From: a virus
Taxonomy: Duplodnaviria > Caudoviricetes
Strand: one strand, 5' to 3'
DNA: 64,000 nt
IMG/VR virus record: IMGVR_UViG_3300015050_001523
Coordinates: 64,001 to 128,000 of that record
The translations under genes were made by a program, and so were the position numbers. A model generated the notes under the pieces. The model was given only the letters and a program-made list of their open reading frames with translations, did not search any database and had not been told where the DNA came from. Positions 6,737 to 63,547 of this stretch are shown here, piece after piece (position 1 is the stretch's first letter; each line of letters starts with the position of its first letter).

Positions 6737-7942
6737 TTAGTTTTTGTTTTTCCATTCAAACTTTTTGTAATTTTCTTTTAGCCACAATTCAAATTTTGAC
6801 AAAACATCATCAATTTGATTTGTCATAAATTCTGCTGAATTCTTAAAGAAGAATGATTGAATCTTTTGATCAGCATGCTTTTGCACAAAAATCGCAAAAT
6901 CTTTCCTGGATGAAAATTCATTCTTTGAAATAAGTTCTGCAACATTCATTGCATTTAGTTCGATTTCTGAAGCATTATGCTTAATTTCGTCTGCAAATAA
7001 CTTTAATCGATCGCTAAGAACATCATAAACATCATCAATAAATCCTAAAAATATTGAATCAATAATTTGATTTTTGCTGTGCTCAATATCTCCACCACCA
7101 ACATGATGAAGGCTAACATATTTTGCATTCTTCATTTTGGCGATTGGACACAAATTTTCATCATAAACAACATATCCTTCAGGATATTTTCCATGATCTT
7201 CTATCTCTGACATTTTCTCAACAAAGAGTTTAACATCTTCTAGTGATTTATAACCAAGCAACCCAGGGAAAACTCTATGAGAAGTTACAATATTAGCTTC
7301 TGAAAATGCCCCATATAATATTTCATCATAAAGCTGAATATTACATTCATACCCCCCAGAATTACGATTTCTTGCTCCCAACAAAACAGCATGATCAAAA
7401 GGGTACTTTGTAACAATTCTGTTCTCTTCTGTGCAAAGCTCAAAAATATATGTAAATTCTTGGTTTAATTTATCCCAAAAAATGTCTCCAATTGTATCAA
7501 AAAAAAGTTGTTCAAATGTTTTATTTGCTTCGTGAGCATTTAATGTCGTGATTGAGCCAAGAGTAGAAATTTTCCATTCAATTCCAGAATGCCAAAGTTG
7601 AATGCATGTCCCATCTGACTTAATTGCCAAACTTAAATTTGGCAACCTTTCATTAAAAACCTTTGGATCAAAGATGGGGCAATGTCCTTCATGCTGATTG
7701 AAAAATTTATCAAATGGTCGGGCCATAAAGGCCCAATTTCCATTTTCATTTCTTAGGATTGAGCCACGACATTCTTTCGTAATTGGTTCTCCCCAATTGG
7801 CCGTAATCATTCCATATTTAAAAAGAAAAAATCCATCTTCTTCTTTGACATTTACTCCAAATTTTTGAGAAAAATCATTTTTAATGGCTTCATAATCACT
7901 TTTGGAATGATTAAGGTTTAAGTATTGAAGAAGATGGCTCAT
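6737..7942 (-). CDS. RNA ligase (T4 Rnl1-like nucleotidyltransferase)
   Basis: ECRGSIL, RPFDKFFN, motif I KSDGT, YIFEL..ENRIVTKY, PEGYVV, KMK. Confidence 0.85.
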   Translation of the reverse strand: MSHLLQYLNLNHSKSDYEAIKNDFSQKFGVNVKEEDGFFLFKYGMITANWGEPITKECRGSILRNENGNWAFMARPFDKFFNQHEGHCPIFDPKVFNERLPNLSLAIKSDGTCIQLWHSGIEWKISTLGSITTLNAHEANKTFEQLFFDTIGDIFWDKLNQEFTYIFELCTEENRIVTKYPFDHAVLLGARNRNSGGYECNIQLYDEILYGAFSEANIVTSHRVFPGLLGYKSLEDVKLFVEKMSEIEDHGKYPEGYVVYDENLCPIAKMKNAKYVSLHHVGGGDIEHSKNQIIDSIFLGFIDDVYDVLSDRLKLFADEIKHNASEIELNAMNVAELISKNEFSSRKDFAIFVQKHADQKIQSFFFKNSAEFMTNQIDDVLSKFELWLKENYKKFEWKNKN

Positions 7943-51160: not shown

Positions 51161-51206
51161 TTTTATTTCCTTTTTTTGAAATAATTTATTTGATGTTAAA
51201 AATTTT

Positions 51207-51280
51207 TGCGTCCGATAGGAATTGAACCTATAACCTATGGCTTAGAAGGCCATTGCTCTATCCTGTTGAGCTACGAACGC
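51207..51280 (-). tRNA. tRNA-Arg(UCU)
   Basis: ATGGC-CTTCTAA-GCCAT, canonical cloverleaf. Confidence 0.92.
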
Positions 51281-51284
51281 ATAT

Positions 51285-51378
51285 TTAAGTGATAACTGAA
51301 AATATGAAAAGCGAAAAACCAAGAACAAGAAACGCAAGTGAAACCATTTTCACAAGAGTTTATTCAGTTATCACTTAA
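51285..51378 (-). ncRNA. stem-closed U-rich RNA element E2
   Basis: 16-bp terminal inverted repeat, GTGAAA-ATGG-TTTCAC hairpin, U-rich tract; fills the gap between two tRNAs. Confidence 0.6.
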
Positions 51379-51451
51379 TGCACCTAGATGGACTTGAACC
51401 ATCAACTTCCATTTTATAAGAATGGCACTCTAACCATTGAGTTATAGGTGC
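51379..51451 (-). tRNA. tRNA-Ile(UAU), second copy
   Basis: CCATT-CTTATAA-AATGG. Confidence 0.9.
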
Positions 51452-51678
51452 AGAAAAAATCTAGCCCGACCCCTGTTTACCATTACATTTCAATGGACCA
51501 AACCATTTGGTATGGGTAGAGTATCGAGATAGAAATAAGCCTCCCAGATTCCGTGGACCAACAATATCTTGCTCAAGGATATTGATTTATTTAATCGACG
51601 AGTCTGCCCCAAACATTTTCAATCAAAAACCAATTCGAAAACCCTTGGGGATTTTGGCTGCCAAGCTTCCCTGGCATC
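51452..51678 (-). ncRNA. 227-nt structured leader / candidate ncRNA
   Basis: Lies between promoter TTGACC-16-TATCCT (51685-51712) and tRNA-Ile; several hairpins. Confidence 0.45.
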
Positions 51679-51780
51679 TCTTGAAGGATAGCATCTTCTG
51701 GCGAAGGGTCAAGGCTATCTTTCATCCTTTTTTTGGGCTGTTCTATCTAAACAATAAATGCAAATCTTATATCATAAGAT

Positions 51781-52221
51781 ATGGGTTATATAGATATTGA
51801 TTATAGATCATTAAAAATATTAGAAGAAGATATAAAATGTATTTTGAAATCTCCAATGGTTTATTCTGAAAACATTTATTCATTCGAAGTCATGTTAGAT
51901 TTATTTTTAAAAAGTTATTTAAAAATAAAAGGATATGATGAGGATTATAGAAAAAAAATTCTCAAAAAATCTAGAGAAAAAATACATAAAAAATACTCAT
52001 TTAAATACCCGGCAGGTGGTGTACTGAAATATTATCTTTATTGCAGTATGCCTAAAAAATATTTAACACCTTACTGGGATGACATTAAATGGGAAATGCT
52101 GCAAGAAATATTTGATATATATGATGAGTTTGTAAGAGAAGTTTTAGAATATCCTCTTCCAATTAAAACAATTTTTGAAAAAATATTGTCAGAAAATCAC
52201 TATAACCCATATTATGATTAA
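51781..52221 (+). CDS. hypothetical protein
   Basis: Isolated plus-strand ORF followed by a hairpin. Confidence 0.6.
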   Translation: MGYIDIDYRSLKILEEDIKCILKSPMVYSENIYSFEVMLDLFLKSYLKIKGYDEDYRKKILKKSREKIHKKYSFKYPAGGVLKYYLYCSMPKKYLTPYWDDIKWEMLQEIFDIYDEFVREVLEYPLPIKTIFEKILSENHYNPYYD

Positions 52222-52282
52222 TTTCAAATTTATTGGCCCATCCTTTGCATGGGCACTTATTGTTAATTAATAACCATATTAA

Positions 52283-52312
52283 AAAAAGAAATACAATATT
52301 GTATTTCTTTTT
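52283..52312 (-). terminator. intrinsic terminator-like hairpin
   Basis: AAAAAGAAATACAA/TTGTATTTCTTTTT at a convergent junction. Confidence 0.6.
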
Positions 52313-52321
52313 GAAAATTGC

Positions 52322-52582
52322 TTAGTCTACGTCACAATCTCTTGTAATTGCATTAAGCAAATCTTGCACATCACTTAATTCATTAATTTGGCCAGATTCT
52401 TCTCCTCCGTAGCGATAAGCAATGCGCCATGCCCAACCCTCATTTTCGCAGTCCTGGTTATTCCCAGAAAACTCGGGCATGAGGAACATGCTCTTCACTA
52501 ATAATAAGACAAGTGCCGCTATCATAACGCCAATTAATATCATTAGTAGATAATTCAGCGGCAATAAGATTAAGATCATCAA
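52322..52582 (-). CDS. membrane-anchored hypothetical protein
   Basis: Hydrophobic N-terminus; start uncertain. Confidence 0.45.
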   Translation of the reverse strand: MMILILLPLNYLLMILIGVMIAALVLLLVKSMFLMPEFSGNNQDCENEGWAWRIAYRYGGEESGQINELSDVQDLLNAITRDCDVD

Positions 52583-52614
52583 TTTGTAGACTTGTTGACA
52601 TAATATATTTCCAA

Positions 52615-53130
52615 TTAAATCTTATTAAGTTTGTGTTTTTTTAAAGACCAAGACTTTGTTGATAAATCAAAACGAGGATCTTTAAGATCAAAATCTTGAA
52701 TATTGACAAATCCTCCAATTCCTTCAACTTCTCCCCCAAGAATCGGGCAAAAAGCAAATAAATCTTTTTCAATAAAAACTTGGTTCAAACTTTTTTGAAT
52801 TAGCTCATATTCAATTGAGGATAATTCATTATTCTCATTCATTTTTGCTGCAATGGCTTTTGCATCTTCAACTGTGGGGCATTTATCAAAATGCATGGCA
52901 ATGGGTTTTTCAACCAAATCATCAGGATTTTTGTCGAGATCAAGAATTGGGATTTTCAACTCAAAAATATAATCATTTTTTTCATTATTGCGGCATGAAT
53001 AAACGCCAGCTCTAAAACCCTTTTTTAGAGCCAAATAATGATCTGGCTCATAACCACAATAAGTTGATTTGAGGTCTGGTGCGAAAGAATGTATCCATTT
53101 TTTGAACAAGTATGTCCAAGAAGTATTCAT
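52615..53130 (-). CDS. hypothetical protein
   Basis: Tiling ORF. Confidence 0.6.
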   Translation of the reverse strand: MNTSWTYLFKKWIHSFAPDLKSTYCGYEPDHYLALKKGFRAGVYSCRNNEKNDYIFELKIPILDLDKNPDDLVEKPIAMHFDKCPTVEDAKAIAAKMNENNELSSIEYELIQKSLNQVFIEKDLFAFCPILGGEVEGIGGFVNIQDFDLKDPRFDLSTKSWSLKKHKLNKI

Positions 53131-53262
53131 TGATTAAGCCAATCCCAACAATAAGATCCATCTTCTGCACGATAATAAAAAACCCAACGTCCACGGATTC
53201 GTCCAATATCATCTATAGTGGCAGAACCGATTTTTGTTCCAATCAGTTTATTTCTCATAATT

Positions 53263-53769
53263 TTATGTAAGGTATTGTTTAATTTCATTTTTTATAACCT
53301 CTGCTACTATTTGCTCTGGATCAATTCCAAGTTCGTCCCAAATCACATCGATGATTGTATTCTGTAAAACTTCATTACAATATTTCGTCGGACCTGGTGG
53401 TCCACTGAGTATTGCAGCCACTCGCTGCTGTACCCAACGCTGAAGACTCTGCCACTCCTGAAGATTGAGCTGGTCGTGTTCAGGCTCGATTCCTTGCAAC
53501 CGCTGCGCAAGCTCTCGCGCTGATTCAGTAGTCAAATTTTGGCGCAGAATCTCTGCCCATCCTCGATATTCTTCTGCATGAGCAAGCTCATATGTGGCTC
53601 GCTTACGATGTGATCTCTCGTTATTTTCAACCAGTTCAAGCATATATTCACGAGATCCAGAAGCGATTCCATCGCACCACTCATCTTCGATATAAATTTC
53701 AATTATAAAATGATCTGCACTTGATTGAACAAGTCTGCAATCACCATGCTTTGGACTTGGACTATTCAT
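53263..53769 (-). CDS. hypothetical protein
   Basis: Tiling ORF, GC-richer core. Confidence 0.6.
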   Translation of the reverse strand: MNSPSPKHGDCRLVQSSADHFIIEIYIEDEWCDGIASGSREYMLELVENNERSHRKRATYELAHAEEYRGWAEILRQNLTTESARELAQRLQGIEPEHDQLNLQEWQSLQRWVQQRVAAILSGPPGPTKYCNEVLQNTIIDVIWDELGIDPEQIVAEVIKNEIKQYLT

Positions 53770-53995
53770 CAGATTTCCCGCGAATAAAATTTTCTAAATT
53801 TAGTGTAGGGATTCCTAGTGGACCATCTGTCTCAGTGAATAATTCAATACTGCTTCCATCAGTAAAATTAATTACCCACATATTGATACAAGTAGTATCA
53901 ATTGACTGAATTGTTTTTCCATAAATGTGATTTTTATTTTTTGCCTTATTTAACATATTTAATCCTTTATTTTCTAGCTCTTCATCGCCACCCAA
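53762..53995 (-). CDS. hypothetical protein
   Basis: Tiling ORF; start probably MLNKAK. Confidence 0.55.
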   Translation of the reverse strand: MGGDEELENKGLNMLNKAKNKNHIYGKTIQSIDTTCINMWVINFTDGSSIELFTETDGPLGIPTLNLENFIRGKSDE

Positions 53996-54303
53996 CGTCG
54001 CGGCATCATTTTGCCCCTATAACGTGAAAATTGACGGTTACGGGTTCCTTCGCTTATTTGCAGACTGCCGATGCCGCTCATATCGACTCGACGCGAAGCA
54101 ATTGCAGTAAGCGCCATGGCTACCCTCACAAATTCCCATCGTCCGCGTGGCGTGGGTCCAAGTCGGCGATGTATTTCAGCAGCGGTTGTAGACCCATATG
54201 ATTTTGTTAGCTCAAGCGCTGCTGCGAATACCTGGCATTCAACGCGATCATCAAAATCCCCATGCATTTCAACGGGTCGTTTTTTTGGTAGTTGTTCTTC
54301 CAT
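53974..54303 (-). CDS. hypothetical protein (GC-rich)
   Basis: Tiling ORF. Confidence 0.55.
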   Translation of the reverse strand: MEEQLPKKRPVEMHGDFDDRVECQVFAAALELTKSYGSTTAAEIHRRLGPTPRGRWEFVRVAMALTAIASRRVDMSGIGSLQISEGTRNRQFSRYRGKMMPRRWVAMKS

Positions 54304-54314
54304 TTTTTTATCTA

Positions 54315-54605
54315 CTAATATCGAATAAAAAATTCTGAAAAATCATCGATTGAAAGATTTCGAATATCTGACATATTAGGCCGAGCACATGTCATATTGG
54401 TTTTGGCAGCCTTAATATATCCGGCAGTTTCGCTGGGAGTTTGACACTCAGAATCGCTCCCAAATCGAACCCACCGAGCCCAACCAGACTTGGCCTCAGA
54501 AATTTCAAAGCCATGACGATGCATTAGCGGAAATTCCTTCGCTTCGCAAGTGAGAACTTCATTAAGGGAAAGAACTTGAGCAGAATATGAAACATTGTTA
54601 ATCAT
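54315..54605 (-). CDS. hypothetical protein
   Basis: Tiling ORF. Confidence 0.55.
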   Translation of the reverse strand: MINNVSYSAQVLSLNEVLTCEAKEFPLMHRHGFEISEAKSGWARWVRFGSDSECQTPSETAGYIKAAKTNMTCARPNMSDIRNLSIDDFSEFFIRY

Positions 54606-54652
54606 TGAACTAATCTCCTAAAATTAACTAATCATATATTTAGAGTTTATTG

Positions 54653-54958
54653 TCAATCAATTTCCCAAATTTTGGATCGGCTTTTAAGGGCTTGCAATTT
54701 TTGATTCAGCAATTCCGAATGAAGCTCGGAAGCAGCCCAACGCAAGGTCCGAGCACGCTCCCTCATTTCGGCTTCATACACCCCGCGCTTATAGCCAGAC
54801 GGGCGATCATTCGTCAAAGTTTTCTCTTGGCTTTCAAGGCGATCAGCTTCTGCGCGCCACCTAACAACAAGATCTTCGATTTTGGAATTCATTGTCCTGA
54901 ATCTTTCTTTCTTTTTTATTTGTTGAAATCCATGGCCCCGCTTTTGGAGCCTCTGCAC
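54653..54958 (-). CDS. coiled-coil hypothetical protein (true start MNSKIE ~54890)
   Basis: Longest ORF overlaps the tRNA, so the start is downstream. Confidence 0.55.
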   Translation of the reverse strand: MQRLQKRGHGFQQIKKKERFRTMNSKIEDLVVRWRAEADRLESQEKTLTNDRPSGYKRGVYEAEMRERARTLRWAASELHSELLNQKLQALKSRSKIWEID

Positions 54959-55027
54959 CAGATAGGATTCGAACCTATGACCTACGGCTTAGAAGGCCGT
55001 TGCTCTATCCAGCTGAGCTACTGATGC
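54954..55027 (-). tRNA. tRNA-Arg(UCU), second copy
   Basis: ACGGC-CTTCTAA-GCCGT; promoter TTGACT-17-TATACT at 55037-55065. Confidence 0.93.
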
Positions 55028-55084
55028 GTATTCTAAAGTATAAACGAGGCCAAGTGAAAAGTCAAGGGAGAAATCGCATAAATT

Positions 55085-55309
55085 TTATTCGTATGTAGTA
55101 CAAATATGTTTTACATCTTTTCCTGCATAATCTTGATCCCATCGGCAGCCAACTTCTTCATGAGAATCTTTATTGGTTGCATAATACCTTTTTTCCCCCT
55201 TAATCCAATGACCATCTTCCAAAATCATAAAAGTTACCAAATATGAATCTGAGTAAGTGCAACGATCTTTTGTATTTTTTAGTTCTGAGTCAATTTTAAT
55301 CATTAGCAA
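55085..55309 (-). CDS. hypothetical protein
   Basis: Tiling ORF. Confidence 0.55.
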   Translation of the reverse strand: MLMIKIDSELKNTKDRCTYSDSYLVTFMILEDGHWIKGEKRYYATNKDSHEEVGCRWDQDYAGKDVKHICTTYE

Positions 55310-55587
55310 TCTCCTAAATCTACATGAACAAGACCATCTTTAATTTCATGCTCTTCTACGCTTACATCTGGATCATAATTGTATGAATCTTTCATTAATT
55401 CACGAGCAGAAGCCTCAGAAGTAGAGACCACAACAATTGAACCACGCCAACTTAAATTTTGAACATAAATTTTAAGATTCATTTTAATTCTTCTTCTTTT
55501 TGATAGACGAGATAAAAGCGTCAAGAGCAGCAGAATCAAATTCGACAACTTTACATTCTCGAATTTCCTCCCAAGCCGAGACAACAC
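55303..55587 (-). CDS. hypothetical protein (true start MNLKIY ~55482)
   Basis: 5' part overlaps the previous gene. Confidence 0.5.
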   Translation of the reverse strand: MLSRLGRKFENVKLSNLILLLLTLLSRLSKRRRIKMNLKIYVQNLSWRGSIVVVSTSEASARELMKDSYNYDPDVSVEEHEIKDGLVHVDLGDC

Positions 55588-55777
55588 CTTCCATAACTTC
55601 CAGAAAGTCCATCATACTCAGATCGGGAGCGGTTGCAGCTTCAAGAACCAATTCCCTCAAATCTCCAACCTTTCCAATGTCTGAAATCTCATCCAGCTTA
55701 TCCAAGAAATTCGTTCGAAGATCGCAAGATTTTGGGTCGAAATGAGGAGGAGGCAAGGTTCCTGGCAGCAGATTCAT
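55484..55777 (-). CDS. hypothetical protein (leaderless)
   Basis: ATG 7 nt after TTGCCC-16-TATCAT (55784-55811). Confidence 0.7.
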   Translation of the reverse strand: MNLLPGTLPPPHFDPKSCDLRTNFLDKLDEISDIGKVGDLRELVLEAATAPDLSMMDFLEVMEGVVSAWEEIRECKVVEFDSAALDAFISSIKKKKN

Positions 55778-55830
55778 GAAAGAATGATAGCATCAAATGG
55801 TGGGAGGGCAAGAGATTTTGATCTGGATTT

Positions 55831-56262
55831 CTAAATCTTTTCCAGTTTTTGAAAATTAACACTTTCACTATAGTAACCGTTGCTACTACCAAGCCAACGA
55901 ACAGTTACATAACCTTTGACTGTAGCGAATTTATAGAATGTCCAAGTGAAACTTTCAGCGTTGTCTGGATGAGGACGGTCTTCGCCTTCATTATCAATAC
56001 TCTCAGCCAACAATATCGGAGAATCCATAAGATCACTTAAGTCGCCAGAAATATCTTCAATATAAACATATTCGCAGCAACTCTGAGAATGAATAAAAGC
56101 ATAGGTAGTGCCATCGCTTAGATGAAATATGATGGATTCATCATCCTGTTCAACAAGAGTAGCGGTTTGGTCGATAAGAACGTCGATATCTGCCATAGCT
56201 CCGATTTTGTAATGCTGGGTCATCAACATATTATAGCCCATATCTGGCGTGATGCAATCCAA
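55831..56262 (-). CDS. hypothetical phage protein
   Basis: H.QSCCE.VYIEDI.GDL..L...PIL.AE..TWTFYK.AT.KG.V.VRW.G.SNGYYSE. Confidence 0.8.
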   Translation of the reverse strand: MDCITPDMGYNMLMTQHYKIGAMADIDVLIDQTATLVEQDDESIIFHLSDGTTYAFIHSQSCCEYVYIEDISGDLSDLMDSPILLAESIDNEGEDRPHPDNAESFTWTFYKFATVKGYVTVRWLGSSNGYYSESVNFQKLEKI

Positions 56263-56307
56263 AAAAAATTTCTTGCATACTCATTTTTTAGGTGTATACT
56301 CAAGCTT

Positions 56308-56727
56308 ATGAATTTGAGTAAGGACGAATTTGAAAGCATTCTAAATCTTGAAGTTGGTGAGGACTTTCAGGATTCAACTGGTACTGTTTGGGCTCGCTTC
56401 CCGAGCACCGATGGAAATATGGAATATAAAATTAGCACAAACGGCCATAATAATGATTATGATACAGGTTCTTCTTGGGTCCCTAAAAAAGAATTGCAAG
56501 AAATTTTTGACATTGGCCAGCGAGAAGCTCAGCTTCATAAAACCCCAAATTGCTCACGTCCGCTCTATGGGATTCGATTGAAGGCCGGAGACACCTTGCA
56601 GGCAACCGATATGTATGATTCAACTGGAGGCGACTGGGCGCCTTGTCCAGTGCCAGGATTGAAGCTTGGGCATCTTGGTTCAGATTCAGTAGTCTGGGTT
56701 CGCCCAATAATAACTAATAAGGAATAA
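56308..56727 (+). CDS. hypothetical protein (leaderless)
   Basis: Start reset to MNLSKD after TTGCAT-17-TATACT. Confidence 0.7.
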   Translation: MNLSKDEFESILNLEVGEDFQDSTGTVWARFPSTDGNMEYKISTNGHNNDYDTGSSWVPKKELQEIFDIGQREAQLHKTPNCSRPLYGIRLKAGDTLQATDMYDSTGGDWAPCPVPGLKLGHLGSDSVVWVRPIITNKE

Positions 56728-56730
56728 ATT

Positions 56731-56922
56731 ATGCGAGAACTAATTCTATCAAAAATTGAATTTCATAAAAATGGATCACAAAATTTTTCAAATGAATATC
56801 GATGGAAAAATGCTATATTGAATGATATTCATGCTTCAAAAATTAAATTTGAAGACTTGTCAGATGAGGACTTACTTAAGATTTTTGAAAAAATCCTATA
56901 TCATTCATTCAGAATGATTTAA
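56731..56922 (+). CDS. hypothetical protein
   Basis: Follows the previous gene; terminator after the stop. Confidence 0.6.
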   Translation: MRELILSKIEFHKNGSQNFSNEYRWKNAILNDIHASKIKFEDLSDEDLLKIFEKILYHSFRMI

Positions 56923-56933
56923 AAAATGAAATG

Positions 56934-57030
56934 AAAAAATGGCGAAATTTCGCCATTTTTCTTTTTAATGGAACTTATTAATTAATAACCAAGAGCTATG
57001 CAAAATTCGAGCCAAGTGGCTCGAATTTTT
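56934..57030. terminator. paired intrinsic terminators at a convergent junction
   Basis: AAAATGGCGAA/TTCGCCATTTT and AAAATTCGAGCC/GGCTCGAATTTT. Confidence 0.8.
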
Positions 57031-57042
57031 TCTTTCTTGAAA

Positions 57043-57714
57043 TTAAGTCGAAAGAAGATTGTCGGTTCGCTTAATTGTTCCAATTTTAACAAGCATTTCG
57101 ACTGTCTCGAAAATAAACTTGATTTTTGTTTCATTTACAGAATCAATTTTTGCCTTGGTGCAAGGACCAGACTTGAGGCACTTAAGAATAAATTCCCTTG
57201 CAGGAAGAGTATTCAATCGAAAACCAGAATCATCTTTAACAATGGTTCCAAGGCTTAATAGTTTATTTGTCCGATACAAAACCCTTTGATATGGAATTGA
57301 AGTCCTTTTTGCAATAGTTGCGGTGCCAAAGCTGGATGCTGGGTCTCGGCTCAAAAAATTGATAACTTTATCCATTTCTTGCTGAATGTCGATGGCCTCT
57401 TTTTGAGGCTCGATCAAATAATCATCTCGGCGATGCAAGATTTCATTTTTTTGAGGAATCAACAATTGCGCAAATTCCGTCAATGGAATTTCCATAACTT
57501 GTTCCTTTACTCCCTTGGACCGCTTAATCTCATCCCAAAGACTTCCAAAAGAATAAAAAGGATTTTCTTCAATCCTTTGCTGAATCAAATCAATAAGGCT
57601 TTGCTTTGCGGCAGCTGCACGCATTTCCTTGAGCTTTTCATTTGTTTGTTTTGAAACTTGATCTGCAAATGACATATTGATTGTTTTCCTTTTTAAAATG
57701 AAAGAAGAGTCCAA
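57043..57714 (-). CDS. winged-helix-containing protein (start probably MSFADQ)
   Basis: TATIAKRTSIPYQRVLYRTNKLLSLGTIVK..GFRL. Confidence 0.6.
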   Translation of the reverse strand: MDSSFILKRKTINMSFADQVSKQTNEKLKEMRAAAAKQSLIDLIQQRIEENPFYSFGSLWDEIKRSKGVKEQVMEIPLTEFAQLLIPQKNEILHRRDDYLIEPQKEAIDIQQEMDKVINFLSRDPASSFGTATIAKRTSIPYQRVLYRTNKLLSLGTIVKDDSGFRLNTLPAREFILKCLKSGPCTKAKIDSVNETKIKFIFETVEMLVKIGTIKRTDNLLST

Positions 57715-58016
57715 TAAGAAACACCATCAATCTCAAATCGACACACTTCGATATCGTCTAAGGTAAATGTTTCCAAAATTGGCCATGAGAGTTTTTTACA
57801 TTCATTGTCATTTTCATATTTTTGATCAATGTTTGTCATGACATCATAAAGATAAACACACTCTTCATTATCTTCAAAATGACGATAAGCTTTATCATCC
57901 ATTGAATACAAAACTGTATAAGCAACAGCCAATGACTTTTTGAGAAAAACTGGATATGAAGTATATTTAATCATATATTCTACAGCTCTAGGGCTTCTCG
58001 CTGTGTAGGTTCTCAA
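57693..58016 (-). CDS. hypothetical protein
   Basis: Tiling ORF. Confidence 0.55.
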   Translation of the reverse strand: MRTYTARSPRAVEYMIKYTSYPVFLKKSLAVAYTVLYSMDDKAYRHFEDNEECVYLYDVMTNIDQKYENDNECKKLSWPILETFTLDDIEVCRFEIDGVSYWTLLSF

Positions 58017-58251
58017 TCGCTGGCACGCATGCGTCTAAAATCTCGCGCAGAGACACACCTGCCTCTAGAGCTTCCACAAGAACACCTTCGATACCCTTCA
58101 AGAAAGACTGGGAACTCAGAATAAACCGATCCTTGTCGTCGATCACTCGAAGCTGGCTTTGCACGGCAAGGCACTGGCCACGGACGCAACGTTCACCGCT
58201 GTTACGTTGGGACAGGCATCCATCCGATAGGCATATGAGTTTGATTGGCAT
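57988..58251 (-). CDS. Cys-containing hypothetical protein (GC-rich)
   Basis: Tiling ORF. Confidence 0.55.
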   Translation of the reverse strand: MPIKLICLSDGCLSQRNSGERCVRGQCLAVQSQLRVIDDKDRFILSSQSFLKGIEGVLVEALEAGVSLREILDACVPAIENLHSEKP

Positions 58252-58259
58252 AATAAAAT

Positions 58260-58565
58260 TTACAGTCCGAGGACTTCCCGTTCTTCTTTGGTGAGCTTAG
58301 AAATGGCTTCAACTTTAAGTTCTTCACGACGTTGAAGTTCAAGTTCGTCGCAGGTATCAAGAATTGTTATTACTGTCTCGTAAATATTGTTGATATCCGC
58401 TTTCTCGCTTTGATATCCCATTACACACCAGCGGACGTATGCCGGCGACTTCACAAACTTAATTGCAGCCCGTTCATTGGAGAATCGCGCTACAACTTTC
58501 ATAGGGCCTCGACCCTCCATTGTGTCGGTGTGGCCCATTACTTCAAAACATTTAATAATTTGCAT
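58260..58565 (-). CDS. hypothetical protein
   Basis: D.MEGRGP; ends ALSKLT.EEREVLGL-like. Confidence 0.7.
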   Translation of the reverse strand: MQIIKCFEVMGHTDTMEGRGPMKVVARFSNERAAIKFVKSPAYVRWCVMGYQSEKADINNIYETVITILDTCDELELQRREELKVEAISKLTKEEREVLGL

Positions 58566-58624
58566 TTTTTTAGTTTCCTATTTCTTTAAAAAATGAATCT
58601 ATTTTTTGGCAGGATTGTAACGAA

Positions 58625-58885
58625 TCAATCAATGATGGTATAATCCCTCTTTTTCCTCAAAAAATAACCATCACAAAACCCGTGGAATCCAAGCCATGTA
58701 CTCTCATTATGTTCAAGGCGACTCATTGATTGAGGAATAAAATCAGAACCATATGCACCTTGATCTCGCTCCTCCTTTCGGCGCTGAGCCATCCCAGAGT
58801 CAAACCCTGAATCATATTGGACTTTGAGCCATTCTTTAGCGCCAATCTTTGCCATAAGACAGTTCTCATTAAGATTTGTGAACAT
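58625..58885 (-). CDS. hypothetical protein
   Basis: Tiling ORF. Confidence 0.6.
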   Translation of the reverse strand: MFTNLNENCLMAKIGAKEWLKVQYDSGFDSGMAQRRKEERDQGAYGSDFIPQSMSRLEHNESTWLGFHGFCDGYFLRKKRDYTIID

Positions 58886-58916
58886 TTATTTTTTCTTTCT
58901 AAAAAATGAAAGGAAA

Positions 58917-59294
58917 TTAGTAGCCGATGACTGCCAGGCCAGGTTCGATTTGATAACTGCGAATTATTGGCGTTGCATAAGCGAAATAATTTTGTGAATT
59001 ATTTGCAGTATCTACAAGATCGATTACTGGATTAAAGGACTTTATAGCCTTTGTGGCGGCAACCAACCTAATCGCTGTATCTTCCATAAATCCTGACCAC
59101 TTGCAGAGATGGCGAGAAATAAGAAAATAACCAGCTGCATTAAGCTGAGTCTCTGCACTTTTGGCCAATTTTAGAGTGACTGAAAATCGATGAGTATCAG
59201 AATAATTCTGAGTCACATTACGAATAAGGTGTACCTCGATATCATGCTTGTCAAGCTGATATCGCGGAAAATCGTTGGAGTCAACCTTAATCAT
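58917..59294 (-). CDS. hypothetical protein
   Basis: Tiling ORF. Confidence 0.6.
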   Translation of the reverse strand: MIKVDSNDFPRYQLDKHDIEVHLIRNVTQNYSDTHRFSVTLKLAKSAETQLNAAGYFLISRHLCKWSGFMEDTAIRLVAATKAIKSFNPVIDLVDTANNSQNYFAYATPIIRSYQIEPGLAVIGY

Positions 59295-59408
59295 TTTATT
59301 CCTTTTGCAAAGATTTGCTGCTTGCTAAATGCTGTGATTTGATTCTAATTTTTGGCAAGAAATGAAAAAATAATTCCATTTAATGCCAATTTATTATTAA
59401 AAAATCAT

Positions 59409-59813
59409 TCAGATATCAGAACGATGAAATAATTTTGAGTAATCAGCACTTGATGACGTTCCAAACCGGCGCTCGTCTTTAAACAACGATTCCTTTAATT
59501 CTGGGCAGTAAATAACCCATCCAAAGCCAAGTGAATCAGTTTTCCATTCAAGTTCAAAAAACTGGGTAATTTCTTCAAAAAAATCGTCCAGTCGATCATC
59601 TTCATCGTCAACACAATTATTCCTCGCAAACATAAAAAGACAAGGGATAAGTTTCCCAAAAAATTGGAGAGGGCTTGCGTTAGATTCTGGATCGGAATTG
59701 AAACAAAAGCAGCTTTCACCGAACATTCCGCGACCAGAGTAAAGACTAACAGAAAATTCCATTTCGTCAACTGCAAACATCAAAGCATCGATCATGTTGT
59801 TTGACAAGTTCAT
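59409..59813 (-). CDS. hypothetical protein
   Basis: YSGRGMFGESC..D(S)LG.G.VIY. Confidence 0.7.
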   Translation of the reverse strand: MNLSNNMIDALMFAVDEMEFSVSLYSGRGMFGESCFCFNSDPESNASPLQFFGKLIPCLFMFARNNCVDDEDDRLDDFFEEITQFFELEWKTDSLGFGWVIYCPELKESLFKDERRFGTSSSADYSKLFHRSDI

Positions 59814-59855
59814 TTTTTATATTCTTTCTTTGGAAGATGAAAAATCTTAGAAATT

Positions 59856-59927
59856 TGAGCCTAGTAAGATTCGAACTTACAACCTTGAGATTAAAAGTCT
59901 CTCGCTCTACCGTTGAGCTATAGGCCC
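59856..59927 (-). tRNA. tRNA-Lys(UUU)
   Basis: GGGCCTA acceptor, GAGA-CTTTTAA-TCTC, AGTTCGAATCT. Confidence 0.88.
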
Positions 59928-61021: not shown

Positions 61022-62098
61022 TTAGCGCTTCTCTACCATTTGAAGCATGCGAGCATGATGCTTCCAACGCTCACCAGGCAGTTGCATGCGATAGTTGCAA
61101 AGATGGACAATGAGCCGCAAGGAAAGCTGGCGCCACTTATTCACGTTTTCGTGAACAAAGTCAAGAATTTCTTGCTGGATTTTGGGGTCAGTGACCCCAT
61201 TTTCCACCATAATCCCAGAATCCTGGCAAACCTGAACAACGCGCAGAAGCCGCCGTCGCTTTGAAAAGAGCCCGAGATTCATGTAACCAGAGCGCGACAG
61301 AAGCGCCTTGACATGCTCGGCCTTTTTGGAGCCAGATTCGCATTCTCGCTGAAAATCGATATTTGTCAGGAACAAAATTCGACCCTGGAAATCAATAGAA
61401 TTTGGGATATCCTCCTTTTGAAGAGTACCAGATTCCTTGAGCCAGCAAATCTTGCGCGCCCTTCCCGGCGGCAAAACTTCAAGCGCTGCCTTCAAGAGAT
61501 TAAGAGTCGTTTCATCTTTGAAAACGCTATCGCAATCATCAAAGCAAAGCACGCCACCTTCAGATGCGCGATGAAGTGCCATGTAGAGATTGATGGGAGA
61601 AATATCCCCCTTAATCAATTCATAGTAAATTCCATCCTCGATTGCCTTTTCGGCATACTTGCCGATACAGTGACTTTTGCCGCAACCGGCAGGGCCGCTG
61701 ATCAGAGTGCTCGGGCGATTGCCCAAAACAACCTGCTCGACACACTCCTCAAAGGTTTCAAATCGACCGGCAATTTCGGTAATAATTTCATCATCCGAAA
61801 GAAGATCGTCAGGATCCTGATAGACAAATTCATTCGCCTCGCGGGGAGTAGCAGGAGCAGATCCAGATCGGGCGAAGCCTGGAGCGAAATCGCCCGAAGC
61901 AACCGCATCAGCCAAGGCGCGCATAGTTTGCGCAAGACGAGGGCTAATAGACTTGCTAGGATCATTGAGAGTCTGAGAGATCGTTGGCTGACTAACACTA
62001 TGTCCAAGCTTGTTAGCCTTGTCAGTCGCGGCCTTCTGCCATCCATGATTAGGATAGCCAAGCGCCTTACAGATCGTCATAAATTCGTCGTGATTCAT
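61022..62098 (-). CDS. N-terminal HTH plus AAA+ ATPase
   Basis: VSQPTISQTL helix; Walker A GPAGCGKS; Walker B LCFDDCD; ILFLTN; GC-rich; promoter TTGCGT-16-TATCAT (62144-62171). Confidence 0.8.
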   Translation of the reverse strand: MNHDEFMTICKALGYPNHGWQKAATDKANKLGHSVSQPTISQTLNDPSKSISPRLAQTMRALADAVASGDFAPGFARSGSAPATPREANEFVYQDPDDLLSDDEIITEIAGRFETFEECVEQVVLGNRPSTLISGPAGCGKSHCIGKYAEKAIEDGIYYELIKGDISPINLYMALHRASEGGVLCFDDCDSVFKDETTLNLLKAALEVLPPGRARKICWLKESGTLQKEDIPNSIDFQGRILFLTNIDFQRECESGSKKAEHVKALLSRSGYMNLGLFSKRRRLLRVVQVCQDSGIMVENGVTDPKIQQEILDFVHENVNKWRQLSLRLIVHLCNYRMQLPGERWKHHARMLQMVEKR

Positions 62099-62468: not shown

Positions 62469-63092
62469 ATGACCACCGAAACCGTCACCGCTCCCGCTGC
62501 CACCGAAACCGCCACCGCTCCCGCGAAGCCCGCTGGCCGCCCGCGCAAGATCTCCGATAAGGCCCTGGCTCGTGCCGAGCAGCTCTATGACTCTGGCCAG
62601 ACCATCGCGCAGATCTGTAGTCAGCCCTGGTGCAATGTCGGCCCTGCCGCGCTTTACTACCACTTCGCTGGCCGTTCGCCCAAGGGCGATTCTGGCGTCG
62701 AAATGCGACCGCGCGGTCGCAAGGGTCCGAATCCCACGCAGCTCGCGCACCTACTTGCCGAGTTTGAAAAGGGCCGCACCCTGACCGAGATCCGGGAGGA
62801 TGCCGTGCTTTGCTCGCGCGTCAAGGTCAAGAACCCCGCTGAAGGTGAGCCGGCGAGTAAGAAGCATATGTTCTCACTGGCCACGCTCAGCAAGGCCGTG
62901 AAGGATGCGGGATTCACGCCGCGCCGCGGCCGACCGGCGAATCCGGTTGCGGTTGAGGAGGTTGCGGAGGTTGCGGAGGTTGCGGCCGAGCCCGCTGCCG
63001 ACGCTCCGATGGCTGCTGAGCCGGTTGCGGAGGTTGCGGCCGAGCCCATGGCCGAGGCTCCGATGGTCGACGAGGCGAGCGCCGCGGAGTAA
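62469..63092 (+). CDS. tandem Hin/resolvase-type HTH DNA-binding protein with acidic tail
   Basis: GRPRKIS..A.QL..SG.TIAQIC..VGPAALYYHF, second HTH, RRGRP; no catalytic recombinase domain. Confidence 0.7.
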   Translation: MTTETVTAPAATETATAPAKPAGRPRKISDKALARAEQLYDSGQTIAQICSQPWCNVGPAALYYHFAGRSPKGDSGVEMRPRGRKGPNPTQLAHLLAEFEKGRTLTEIREDAVLCSRVKVKNPAEGEPASKKHMFSLATLSKAVKDAGFTPRRGRPANPVAVEEVAEVAEVAAEPAADAPMAAEPVAEVAAEPMAEAPMVDEASAAE

Positions 63093-63099
63093 TCCATGA

Positions 63100-63174
63100 A
63101 TGGTGGGAGGGTTTCCCCTCCCACCATATTATTTTAATCTTAATTTAAGGTGCGCCAATCGCGCACCTTTTTTT
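63100..63174 (+). terminator. two tandem hairpins/terminators
   Basis: ATGGTGGGAGG/CCTCCCACCAT and AAGGTGCGC/GCGCACCTT followed by T tract. Confidence 0.75.
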
Positions 63175-63270
63175 ATGGACATCAAAAATTAATTAATTAA
63201 TAACAAGCCTTATGCATGAAAGATGCCAAAGCGCCAAAGGCGCGGCATAAATTAAATCGACCGAAGATGC

Positions 63271-63298
63271 TTGCATCCTGATTTAGATAAGCTATCTT
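63271..63298 (+). promoter_or_regulatory. sigma70-like promoter for TL3/TL4
   Basis: TTGCAT-16-TATCTT; +7 falls on the first nt of TL3. Confidence 0.7.
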
Positions 63299-63304
63299 TA
63301 GGTC

Positions 63305-63420
63305 TGAGGATAGGCGAGATAAAGGAAAGACCAAGGGGCTCTGCCAAGAACCAAGGTCACTATTTCCAGGAACACGCAAGCTGGCAGGCTTTCTCCCGGG
63401 TTCGAATCCTGGATCCTCAT
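63305..63420 (+). ncRNA. 116-nt tRNA-like RNA TL3
   Basis: TGAGGAT/ATCCTCA acceptor, CCGGG-TTCGAAT-CCTGG T arm, no canonical anticodon arm. Confidence 0.65.
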
Positions 63421-63426
63421 TTTTGA

Positions 63427-63547
63427 CGGTATGAGACGAATAGGAGCACGTCTGCACCAAGCCACCCCGGTGCAAGAGATCTAAAGATCTATGCGAAAGC
63501 TAAGGATTTATTTAGATTTATAGTTGGTTCGAATCCAGCCATATCGA
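63427..63547 (+). ncRNA. 121-nt tRNA-like RNA TL4 (G3.U70, A73)
   Basis: CGGTATG/CATATCG acceptor, D arm, 6-bp arm with 10-nt loop, extra hairpins, GTTGG-TTCGAAT-CCAGC. Confidence 0.7.

Follow-up and report, generated by a model that had tools for sequence, protein, structure and literature searches.

The stretch of DNA analysed here (the window) is 64,000 nt long and corresponds to bases 64001-128000 of a 322,518-bp virus record with a G+C content of 33.6%. The genome is that of a phage, which encodes a T4-type major capsid protein and 37 tRNA genes. The element considered in this work, TL3, is 116 nt long (window positions 63305-63420, plus strand) and is located at the left edge of a G+C-richer stretch (~46%) that extends from 125 to 142.5 kb of the genome. 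It is followed after 6 nt by a second RNA of similar type, TL4, and is preceded by genes for a helix-turn-helix (HTH) protein and an ATPase. The features of the locus are as follows.

61022-62098, minus strand: P-loop ATPase of 358 aa (phrog_1250), the usual neighbour of the HTH gene
62469-63092, plus strand: HTH_7/AT-hook-like protein of 207 aa, directly upstream of the TL3 unit
63100-63176, plus strand: terminator hairpins T1 (63100-63127) and T2 (63147-63169) of the HTH gene; in contig L123 a tRNA-like RNA lies between T1 and T2
63271-63298, plus strand: cassette promoter, with TTGCAT (-35) at 63271-63276, a 16-nt spacer and TATCTT (-10) at 63293-63298
63305-63311, plus strand: 5' strand of the acceptor, TGAGGAT, pair probabilities 0.7-1.0
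63312-63328, plus strand: purine-rich single-stranded linker in the place of the D arm, with GG dinucleotides that could mimic G18-G19
63329-63358, plus strand: core of the central arm, in which GACC (63329-63332) and GGUC (63355-63358) pair with a probability of 0.96
63341-63346 and 63382-63387, plus strand: CTGCCA and TGGCAG, a competing, improbable alternative pairing that encloses 35 nt
63378-63391, plus strand: small extra hairpin AAGCU/GGCUU with loop GGCA at the variable-arm position, probability ~0.3, not found in the relative TL3r (see below)
63396-63412, plus strand: T arm, CCGGG-TTCGAAT-CCTGG, with one G-U pair
63413-63420, plus strand: 3' strand of the acceptor, ATCCTCA (63413-63419), and discriminator T63420; CCA is not encoded
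63421-63426, plus strand: U-rich 6-nt spacer between TL3 and TL4
63427-63547, plus strand: TL4, a second oversized tRNA-like RNA, in the transcription unit of TL3 (z = -3.4)

The G+C-richer stretch is made up of small units parted by one repeated terminator-promoter module, of which the form TTGCAT-N16-TATCTT is present in about 12 copies at 124-139 kb of the genome; within the window, cassette promoters are found at about 60424 (minus strand) and at 63271. In at least five cassettes with TTGCAT-N16-TATCYT promoters an ATG is located exactly 6 nt past the -10 box, and therefore many of the small cassette genes are probably translated from leaderless mRNAs. A minus-strand ORF at 63197-63475 (92 aa) was considered as a gene and rejected; it is without a homologue and crosses the repeated non-coding module. 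No direct repeat of the 3' end of TL3 or TL4, such as might mark an integration site, was found at the far edge of the G+C-richer island.

True tRNA genes are scattered among small accessory genes at window positions 51206-59927 (minus strand), where promoter-like sequences precede the genes for tRNA-Arg(UCU) (TTGACT-N17-TATACT, ending 9 nt before base 1) and tRNA-Arg(CCU) (TTGCAT-N17-TACAAT, ending 11 nt before base 1). A genuine encoded 3' CCA was not found in any of the phage's 37 tRNA genes, and a search of the genome for a CCA-adding enzyme gave no match to Pfam PF01743. The HTH protein carries invariant GRPR, RPRGRKG and RGRP motifs and an acidic repeat tail, and its homologues in public assemblies form 18 clusters at E<1e-10. 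The P-loop ATPase and HTH_7 genes occur together in several lineages (L123, L137 and the P0002 contig).

Anatomy, promoter and fold of TL3

Several features proposed for TL3 in an initial annotation, which had been made from the sequence, held at the nucleotide level. TGAGGAT and ATCCTCA form seven Watson-Crick pairs, so that the acceptor is indeed perfect, and the T arm is canonical, as every conserved base (G53, T54, T55, C56, A58 and C61) is present and the arm abuts the 3' strand of the acceptor directly. TL3 thus has one hallmark of a canonical tRNA, a 7-bp acceptor with a conserved T arm stacked on it, and lacks the others, namely a D stem (3-4 pairs) and an anticodon arm in which 5 bp close a 7-nt loop that carries U33 and a purine at position 37. 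The "weak D arm" of the initial annotation was not recovered, since no D stem can be drawn in TL3. The upstream terminators that it had noted are present as the terminator-like hairpins at 63100-63127 and 63147-63169, and the element begins right after a -10 box of its own, with 6 nt in between and T63305 as the seventh base after TATCTT. T63305 occupies the place where sister cassettes under the same promoter module have the A of the leaderless ATG. Bacterial RNA polymerase prefers to start with a purine, and a U start is unusual; we infer that transcription starts at T63305 or, more likely, at G63306, 1 nt inside the acceptor.

In a variant of the locus from a freshwater metagenome, 2 of 144 bases are changed in the piece with the promoter and TL3 (63269-63412), and the flanking pieces differ at about 6%. 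A metagenome variant has G3-C70 instead of G3-U70 in TL4 (T>C at 63544). A search for sequencing runs that contain this region listed none made from RNA. When TL3 was compared with the phage genome by BLAST, T loops were the only matches, and no significant complementarity to TL3, as would be expected of an antisense target, was found elsewhere in the genome.

The minimum free energy of TL3 is -36.0 kcal/mol when folded without constraints, and the same energy is reached when the acceptor and the T arm are enforced; this value is no better than that of shuffled sequences (z = -1.07). In the ensemble, the acceptor pairs at 0.7-1.0, GACC/GGUC at 0.96 and the T arm, in the unconstrained fold, at 0.31. 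The layout favoured by the thermodynamic model is therefore an acceptor, a purine-rich linker, the GACC/GGUC arm, a small hairpin and the T arm. The initial annotation had instead placed a branched insert in the position of the anticodon loop and closed it with a CTGCCA/TGGCAG helix. The two segments are complementary and do enclose 35 nt. However, the helix has a probability of about 0.01, the best structure that contains it reaches -31.8 kcal/mol versus -36.0 kcal/mol, and it has no counterpart in the two relatives of TL3 described below; it is probably not the fold that is adopted, although the complementarity itself is real, and the branched insert is likewise not supported.

To estimate how often the remaining half would arise by chance, we searched all 322 kb of the genome for T arms that are followed by one strand of a 7-bp acceptor, the other strand lying 40-170 nt upstream, with 20 shuffled genomes as a control. 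The genome gave 38 matches, of which 31 were tRNAs called by ARAGORN and 6 were other tRNA-like elements that include TL3 and TL4, versus a mean of 0.35 matches in the shuffled genomes. The acceptor/T-arm half of TL3 is not a chance match.

TL3 was also compared with known RNAs. ARAGORN did not call it with default settings, with introns allowed or with relaxed thresholds, and no Rfam family, including the tRNA family RF00005 and the intron families, matched 63305-63420 at gathering thresholds or at E<=10, the latter applied to the last kilobase of the window. For comparison, the gathering threshold of RF00005 is 29 bits and seven true tRNAs in the window score 65-74 bits. The possibility that TL3 is an ordinary tRNA that had been folded wrongly, which the initial annotation had named as a finding that would overturn it, is thus contradicted by both programs. 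Bacterial Y RNA (YrlA, RF02553), whose hallmark is a terminal helix that binds Ro60 and closes a tRNA-like module, was considered and rejected; it gave no Rfam match at E<=10, and the terminal helix of TL3 is an ordinary acceptor stem. We also deleted in silico every segment of 15-69 nt from TL3 and ran ARAGORN on the 2,915 variants, none of which was a normal tRNA; the only solutions were four odd ones of 98 nt with long variable arms. The suggestion that an insert might be removed from TL3 was therefore not borne out, and deletion of 5-59 nt from the relative TL3r likewise recovered no tRNA.

Other tRNA-like elements are present in this genome. TL4 folds well; between its acceptor and its T arm the fold has a D-like hairpin, a stem of 5 bp closing a 10-nt loop, and a long extra arm. 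About 7 kb past the end of the window, in the same cassette island, a 101-nt tRNA-like gene (genome G000:C1, complement 135060-135160) has a canonical acceptor, D arm and T arm and about 30 extra nucleotides in the anticodon arm. It was missed by ARAGORN at default settings and was called as tRNA-Gln(UUG) with a 30-nt intron at position 34 when introns were allowed, a solution in which the anticodon stem contains a G-G mismatch and position 37 is U. The large tRNA cluster contains a further element of 73 nt (genome complement 183207-183279), absent from the ARAGORN list, in which an acceptor of 7 bp is combined with a T arm that has the loop TGCAAGT. An architecture like that of TL3 is found again in TL4, in TL1 and in the element at 135 kb.

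Counterparts in diverged relatives and likeness to tRNA-Gln

Two diverged relatives carry a tRNA-shaped element behind a homologue of the HTH gene. The first, TL3r (97 nt, L123:6770-6866, or 6770-6869 with CCA), follows an HTH homologue of 52% identity in contigs L123-L125 and is placed after the T1 hairpin of that gene and before a second terminator, T2. It combines the acceptor CGAGGGG/CCCUUCG with the T arm GUAGG-UUCGAGU-CCUAC and the discriminator A, and CCA is encoded. The second, TL3s (116 nt, L133:1036-1151), begins 4 nt after T1 of an HTH homologue of 45% identity and has the acceptor UGCCGCG/CGCGGCA, the T arm GGAGG-UUCGAAU-CCUCU, whose stem is separated from the acceptor by 2 nt, and the discriminator U followed by a U tract. 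Both have a linker that forms no stem and carries AUGG at positions 10-13, and in both the central arm is long and irregular (54 nt in TL3r and ~70 nt in TL3s); neither was called as a tRNA or matched an Rfam family. The terminator hairpin of the HTH gene precedes them by 4-6 nt, and neither has a promoter of its own. A 5' end defined by a promoter, which the initial annotation had made part of the description of this RNA, is therefore not a property of the family, and on these sequences the promoter-plus-start layout is a local trait of TL3 in this phage.

The stem sequences of TL3r and TL3s are entirely unlike those of TL3. Nevertheless, all 36 stem positions in the three elements pair and 7 of the 12 pairs differ on both sides (5 pairs in the formal two-sequence count). 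This speaks against a random relic, by an argument that is partly circular because the relatives were recognised by their stems and the middles cannot be aligned. Between the middles of TL3, TL3r and TL3s there is no likeness beyond that of shuffled sequences (z = 0.4-1.4), and the homology therefore rests on position and architecture. A block common to TL3 and TL3r, AAnGGnAA..AGACC..GGGG, is weak evidence; it has no antisense target in the phage or in L123, and as a search pattern it retrieved only four ordinary tRNAs. An alignment of TL3 and TL3r by MAFFT and RNAalifold was set aside, as the ends were misaligned. Taken together, the comparison is best read as constraint on the acceptor/T-arm half only of TL3-type RNAs.

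Among the seven other lineages that could be read as DNA, an HTH homologue is followed by a tRNA-like RNA in two and stands without one in five. A 2,420-nt contig of P0003 (JGI 3300059473) encodes an HTH homologue of 76% identity, behind which the 109-aa ORF begins after 260 nt, versus 498 nt here. The gap is shorter by about 238 nt, which is close to the 243 nt of the TL3-TL4 pair; this contig therefore probably lacks the pair, and TL3-TL4 look like a unit that is gained or lost. With five HTH lineages and probably this further contig without it, the tRNA-like RNA is recurrent but dispensable.

Outside these cases the searches returned little. Sequence searches of phage, viral and metagenome collections matched only near-identical short contigs from freshwater metagenomes, and no relatives were reached in viral contigs by way of the 109-aa ORF, the HTH protein or the ATPase as protein neighbours. 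DNA patterns for the 3' end of TL3, the double T loop and the cassette module had no match in viral contigs, and a pattern scan of metagenome DNA gave ordinary tRNA arrays only. DNA and covariance-model searches of 30, 46 and 50 capsid-related phage records, which are mostly fragments, found only true tRNAs, so that the covariance search proposed in the initial annotation produced no homologue of TL3 among the 50 related records. The third match of covariance model R1 (L119:2704-2769) proved to be a terminator-like hairpin and was discarded.

The ends of TL3 resemble those of a particular tRNA. Exact copies of the 21-mer from its T loop to its 3' end are present in eight genomes of Brocadiia/Planctomycetota. 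ARAGORN assigns seven of these copies to tRNA-Gln(CUG), as its 3' end, and the 5' strand of this tRNA is also TGAGGAT. As the search was limited to exact matches, this is uninformative about the host. Over the terminal positions of TL3 (12 at the 5' end and 25 at the 3' end), 34 of 37 are identical to bacterial tRNA-Gln(CUG), whereas the 84-nt middle is unrelated, which is not what uniform decay would produce. The pentamer CUCUG at 63339-63343 corresponds to the start, or 5' part, of the anticodon loop of tRNA-Gln(CUG) and is missing in TL3r and TL3s. TL3 is thus probably descended from a bacterial-type tRNA-Gln(CUG) gene.

Possible roles of TL3

TL3 keeps the coaxial acceptor/T-arm half of a tRNA, with a purine-rich linker instead of the D arm and a longer irregular arm and a small hairpin instead of the anticodon arm. 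The explanation that we prefer, with confidence that is about evenly balanced, is that it is a real gene for a non-decoding tRNA-like small RNA. The acceptor/T-arm half is the part of a tRNA that is recognised by RNase P, the CCA-adding enzyme, 3' trimming nucleases and the enzymes that modify the T loop. TL3 would be transcribed from the cassette promoter, with its start at T63305 or, more probably, G63306; RNase P would remove a 5' leader, if there is one, and by a further cut, at the start of TL4, would free the 3' end of TL3; exonucleases would trim the tail, the CCA-adding enzyme of the host would complete the molecule, and TrmA and TruB would modify its T loop. Such tRNA-like processing would let TL3 accumulate in stable form, at a length of about 116 nt; its tRNA module would confer processing and nuclease resistance, and the lineage-specific central arm would be the working part. 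TL3r and TL3s, which are without a promoter, must be cut from a longer transcript and, with one encoded CCA, fit maturation of the tRNA type, while the 5' end of TL3 may be made by initiation alone, the cassette promoter having been acquired.

It is unlikely, although the best of the alternatives, that TL3 acts only in cis, as an RNase P signal or terminator that sets the ends of neighbouring mRNAs and whose released RNA has no function. Such a role fits the relatives better than it fits TL3. TL3r and TL3s lie 4-6 nt behind T1, lack a promoter and are followed by a terminator or a U tract, and a cut by RNase P would leave the HTH mRNA with a protective hairpin at its end. A discriminator U followed by a U-rich tract is found both in TL3 and in L133, a terminator-like alternative hairpin can be drawn at 63398-63416, and non-conserved middles are what would be expected if only the tRNA-like half mattered. 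In this phage, however, a strong second terminator and a separate promoter part TL3 from the HTH gene, whose mRNA is therefore not punctuated by it, and the downstream ORF has a promoter-like site of its own with leaderless spacing. Furthermore, a bare processing signal does not need a central arm of about 45-70 nt.

It is improbable that TL3 is a decaying relic without a function, left over from a tRNA-Gln gene in which a single insertion or recombination event exchanged the body, and still next to a promoter by accident. This reading draws on the tRNA-Gln(CUG) ends and the CUCUG pentamer, on the non-significant folding energy, on the absence of the element from most HTH lineages and from the 50 related records, and on the tRNA genes scattered through the hyperplastic region, among which debris is to be expected. 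A relic would hardly retain all 12 stem pairs and every conserved T-loop base around a middle that shares nothing with a tRNA. The architecture also recurs in TL4, TL1, the 135-kb element and the syntenic site of two relatives, one of them with CCA and a terminator, and in the metagenome variant the promoter-plus-TL3 piece has diverged less than the neighbouring pieces. The initial annotation had argued against a random relic from the dedicated promoter and the upstream terminators. Its conclusion is retained, because non-decoding tRNA-shaped RNAs stand at the same position in two diverged relatives, while the promoter is specific to this phage.

A more speculative reading, which we consider a long shot, joins the tRNA-like RNA, the AT-hook/HTH protein and the P-loop ATPase into one module, a small ribonucleoprotein. 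In such a complex, the arginine-rich GRP motifs of the HTH protein, which are invariant in four homologues, might bind the lineage-specific arm of the RNA, and the tRNA half might dock the complex on a tRNA-handling machine of the host or hide the RNA from nucleases. If this were true, it would be a partnership of a phage protein and a tRNA mimic that has not been described before.

Quite improbable, too, is a decoy, in which the acceptor/T-arm half would titrate a host factor such as an anti-phage toxin or nuclease that targets acceptor ends, or a tRNA-processing enzyme. What TL3 retains of a tRNA is just the half that acceptor-end enzymes recognise, the phage has several other tRNA mimics, and TL3 resides in an accessory cassette region of early type; the idea is nevertheless purely inferential, and no defence-family matches were obtained beyond the P-loop-level similarity of the neighbouring ATPase.

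The two remaining readings fail direct tests. An aminoacylated, tmRNA-like or otherwise charged tRNA mimic is very improbable. The succession of acceptor, stemless GG-containing D-like linker, long arm and T arm does recall the tRNA-like domain of tmRNA, and TL3r encodes A73-CCA, but TL3 has A3-U70 instead of G3-U70, is only 116 nt long, and has neither a tag reading frame nor pseudoknots, and both the tmRNA mode of ARAGORN and Rfam were blank. Since the discriminator (U, A and U) and the acceptor sequences vary among the three elements, no set of synthetase identity elements is conserved. The least probable reading is a precursor of a decoding tRNA-Gln from which an insert of about 43 nt is removed: CUCUG, which contains the anticodon CUG, lies at a roughly fitting distance from the 5' end, and the island element at 135060-135160 is called as an intron-bearing tRNA-Gln(UUG), yet ARAGORN with introns and the deletion variants gave nothing at TL3, the flanking "anticodon stem" has four pairs of which three are G-U, position 37 is C, the D stem is missing, CUCUG is not in the relatives, TL3r is not rescued by any deletion, and the phage already has tRNA-Gln(CUG) and tRNA-Gln(UUG). 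With regard to the mode of splicing, a bulge-helix-bulge motif, which has 3-nt bulges around a 4-bp helix, is absent, as the candidate helix in TL3, on inspection, has 6 bp and is flanked by a 2x1 internal loop; the extra length of about 43 nt is far too small for a group I intron, and no Rfam intron family was detected at E<=10.

Should TL3 prove to be stable and to mature in the predicted way, it would be nature's counterpart of the biotechnological tRNA scaffold and a handle on what such RNAs do for large phages rich in tRNA mimics; without expression, it would amount to no more than a well-preserved remnant of a tRNA-Gln gene.

Likeness to known systems

The TL3 unit is bounded by the repeated terminator-promoter module, as are the PeSL cassettes of T4-type phages (Arbiol et al. 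2010, PMC2839356). Like these, TL3-TL4 form one unit in an array of accessory cassettes bounded by promoters and terminators in a hyperplastic region; unlike them, the payload consists of RNA genes instead of a small ORF.

The mascRNA of MALAT1 is a tRNA-like processing signal in a longer transcript. The t-elements of plant mitochondria are also tRNA-like processing signals in longer transcripts (PMC1920247). TL3r and TL3s resemble both in that they lie in the 3' untranslated part of the HTH transcript, behind a hairpin, where a cut by RNase P would make the 3' end of the mRNA. The known cases are eukaryotic or organellar, whereas TL3 has its own promoter and is not joined to the HTH mRNA. The tRNA-like domain of tmRNA, like TL3, combines an acceptor and T arm with a long helix and has no more than a stemless linker with GG for a D region; TL3 differs from tmRNA in being without G3-U70, a messenger part and pseudoknots and in having about one third of its size.

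In the tRNA scaffold of Ponchon and Dardel, whose principle has been demonstrated by experiment, a foreign structured RNA stands in for the anticodon stem-loop, and the chimera gains the processing and protection of a tRNA (PMC3753655). The proposed reading of TL3 is similar, in that the acceptor stem and T arm are kept and the anticodon stem-loop is swapped out. The scaffold, though, has a normal D arm and carries its insert on an intact anticodon stem, whereas TL3 has no D stem and no convincing anticodon-like closing helix; moreover, the scaffold is a laboratory design and not a natural family.

The closest known RNA to TL3 is the species 1 RNA of phage T4 (rnaC, NC_000866 70908-71046, 139 nt), a stable, non-decoding RNA of a T4-type phage to which TL3 is likened as a predicted gene. 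To our knowledge, no function has been assigned to the T4 species 1 and 2 RNAs, which have been known for about fifty years. The T arm of rnaC, CCGGG-UUCGAAU-CCCGG, is one base off that of TL3; rnaC has an acceptor-like terminal stem and long hairpins in the places of the D and anticodon arms, and rnaD (species 2 RNA) lies at a distance of 6 nt from it, the same spacing as between TL3 and TL4. The acceptor of rnaC contains two U-U mismatches, whereas that of TL3 is perfect. The likeness does not extend to detectable homology: a model of TL3 and TL3r gave rnaC a partial-length score of 13.7 bits, lower than the scores of the T4 tRNA-Leu and tRNA-Ser, which are ordinary class II tRNAs, and a DNA search of the phage collection returned no match. 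The T4 species I and II RNAs are made from the T4 tRNA transcript, their genes standing at the end of the tRNA operon, and are released from its long precursor (PMC2330249), unlike TL3, which is located in an accessory cassette with its own promoter.

By its phage origin, T arm, acceptor-like stem, non-tRNA body and lack of an anticodon, TL3 can be placed, as far as its predicted features go, with the T4-type tRNA-like stable RNAs of the rnaC kind. It adds to the phage tRNA look-alikes known since T4 a compact case with a defined promoter and no overlapping gene, and its two positional counterparts show which half is kept, the acceptor and T arm, and which half, the central arm, is free to change.
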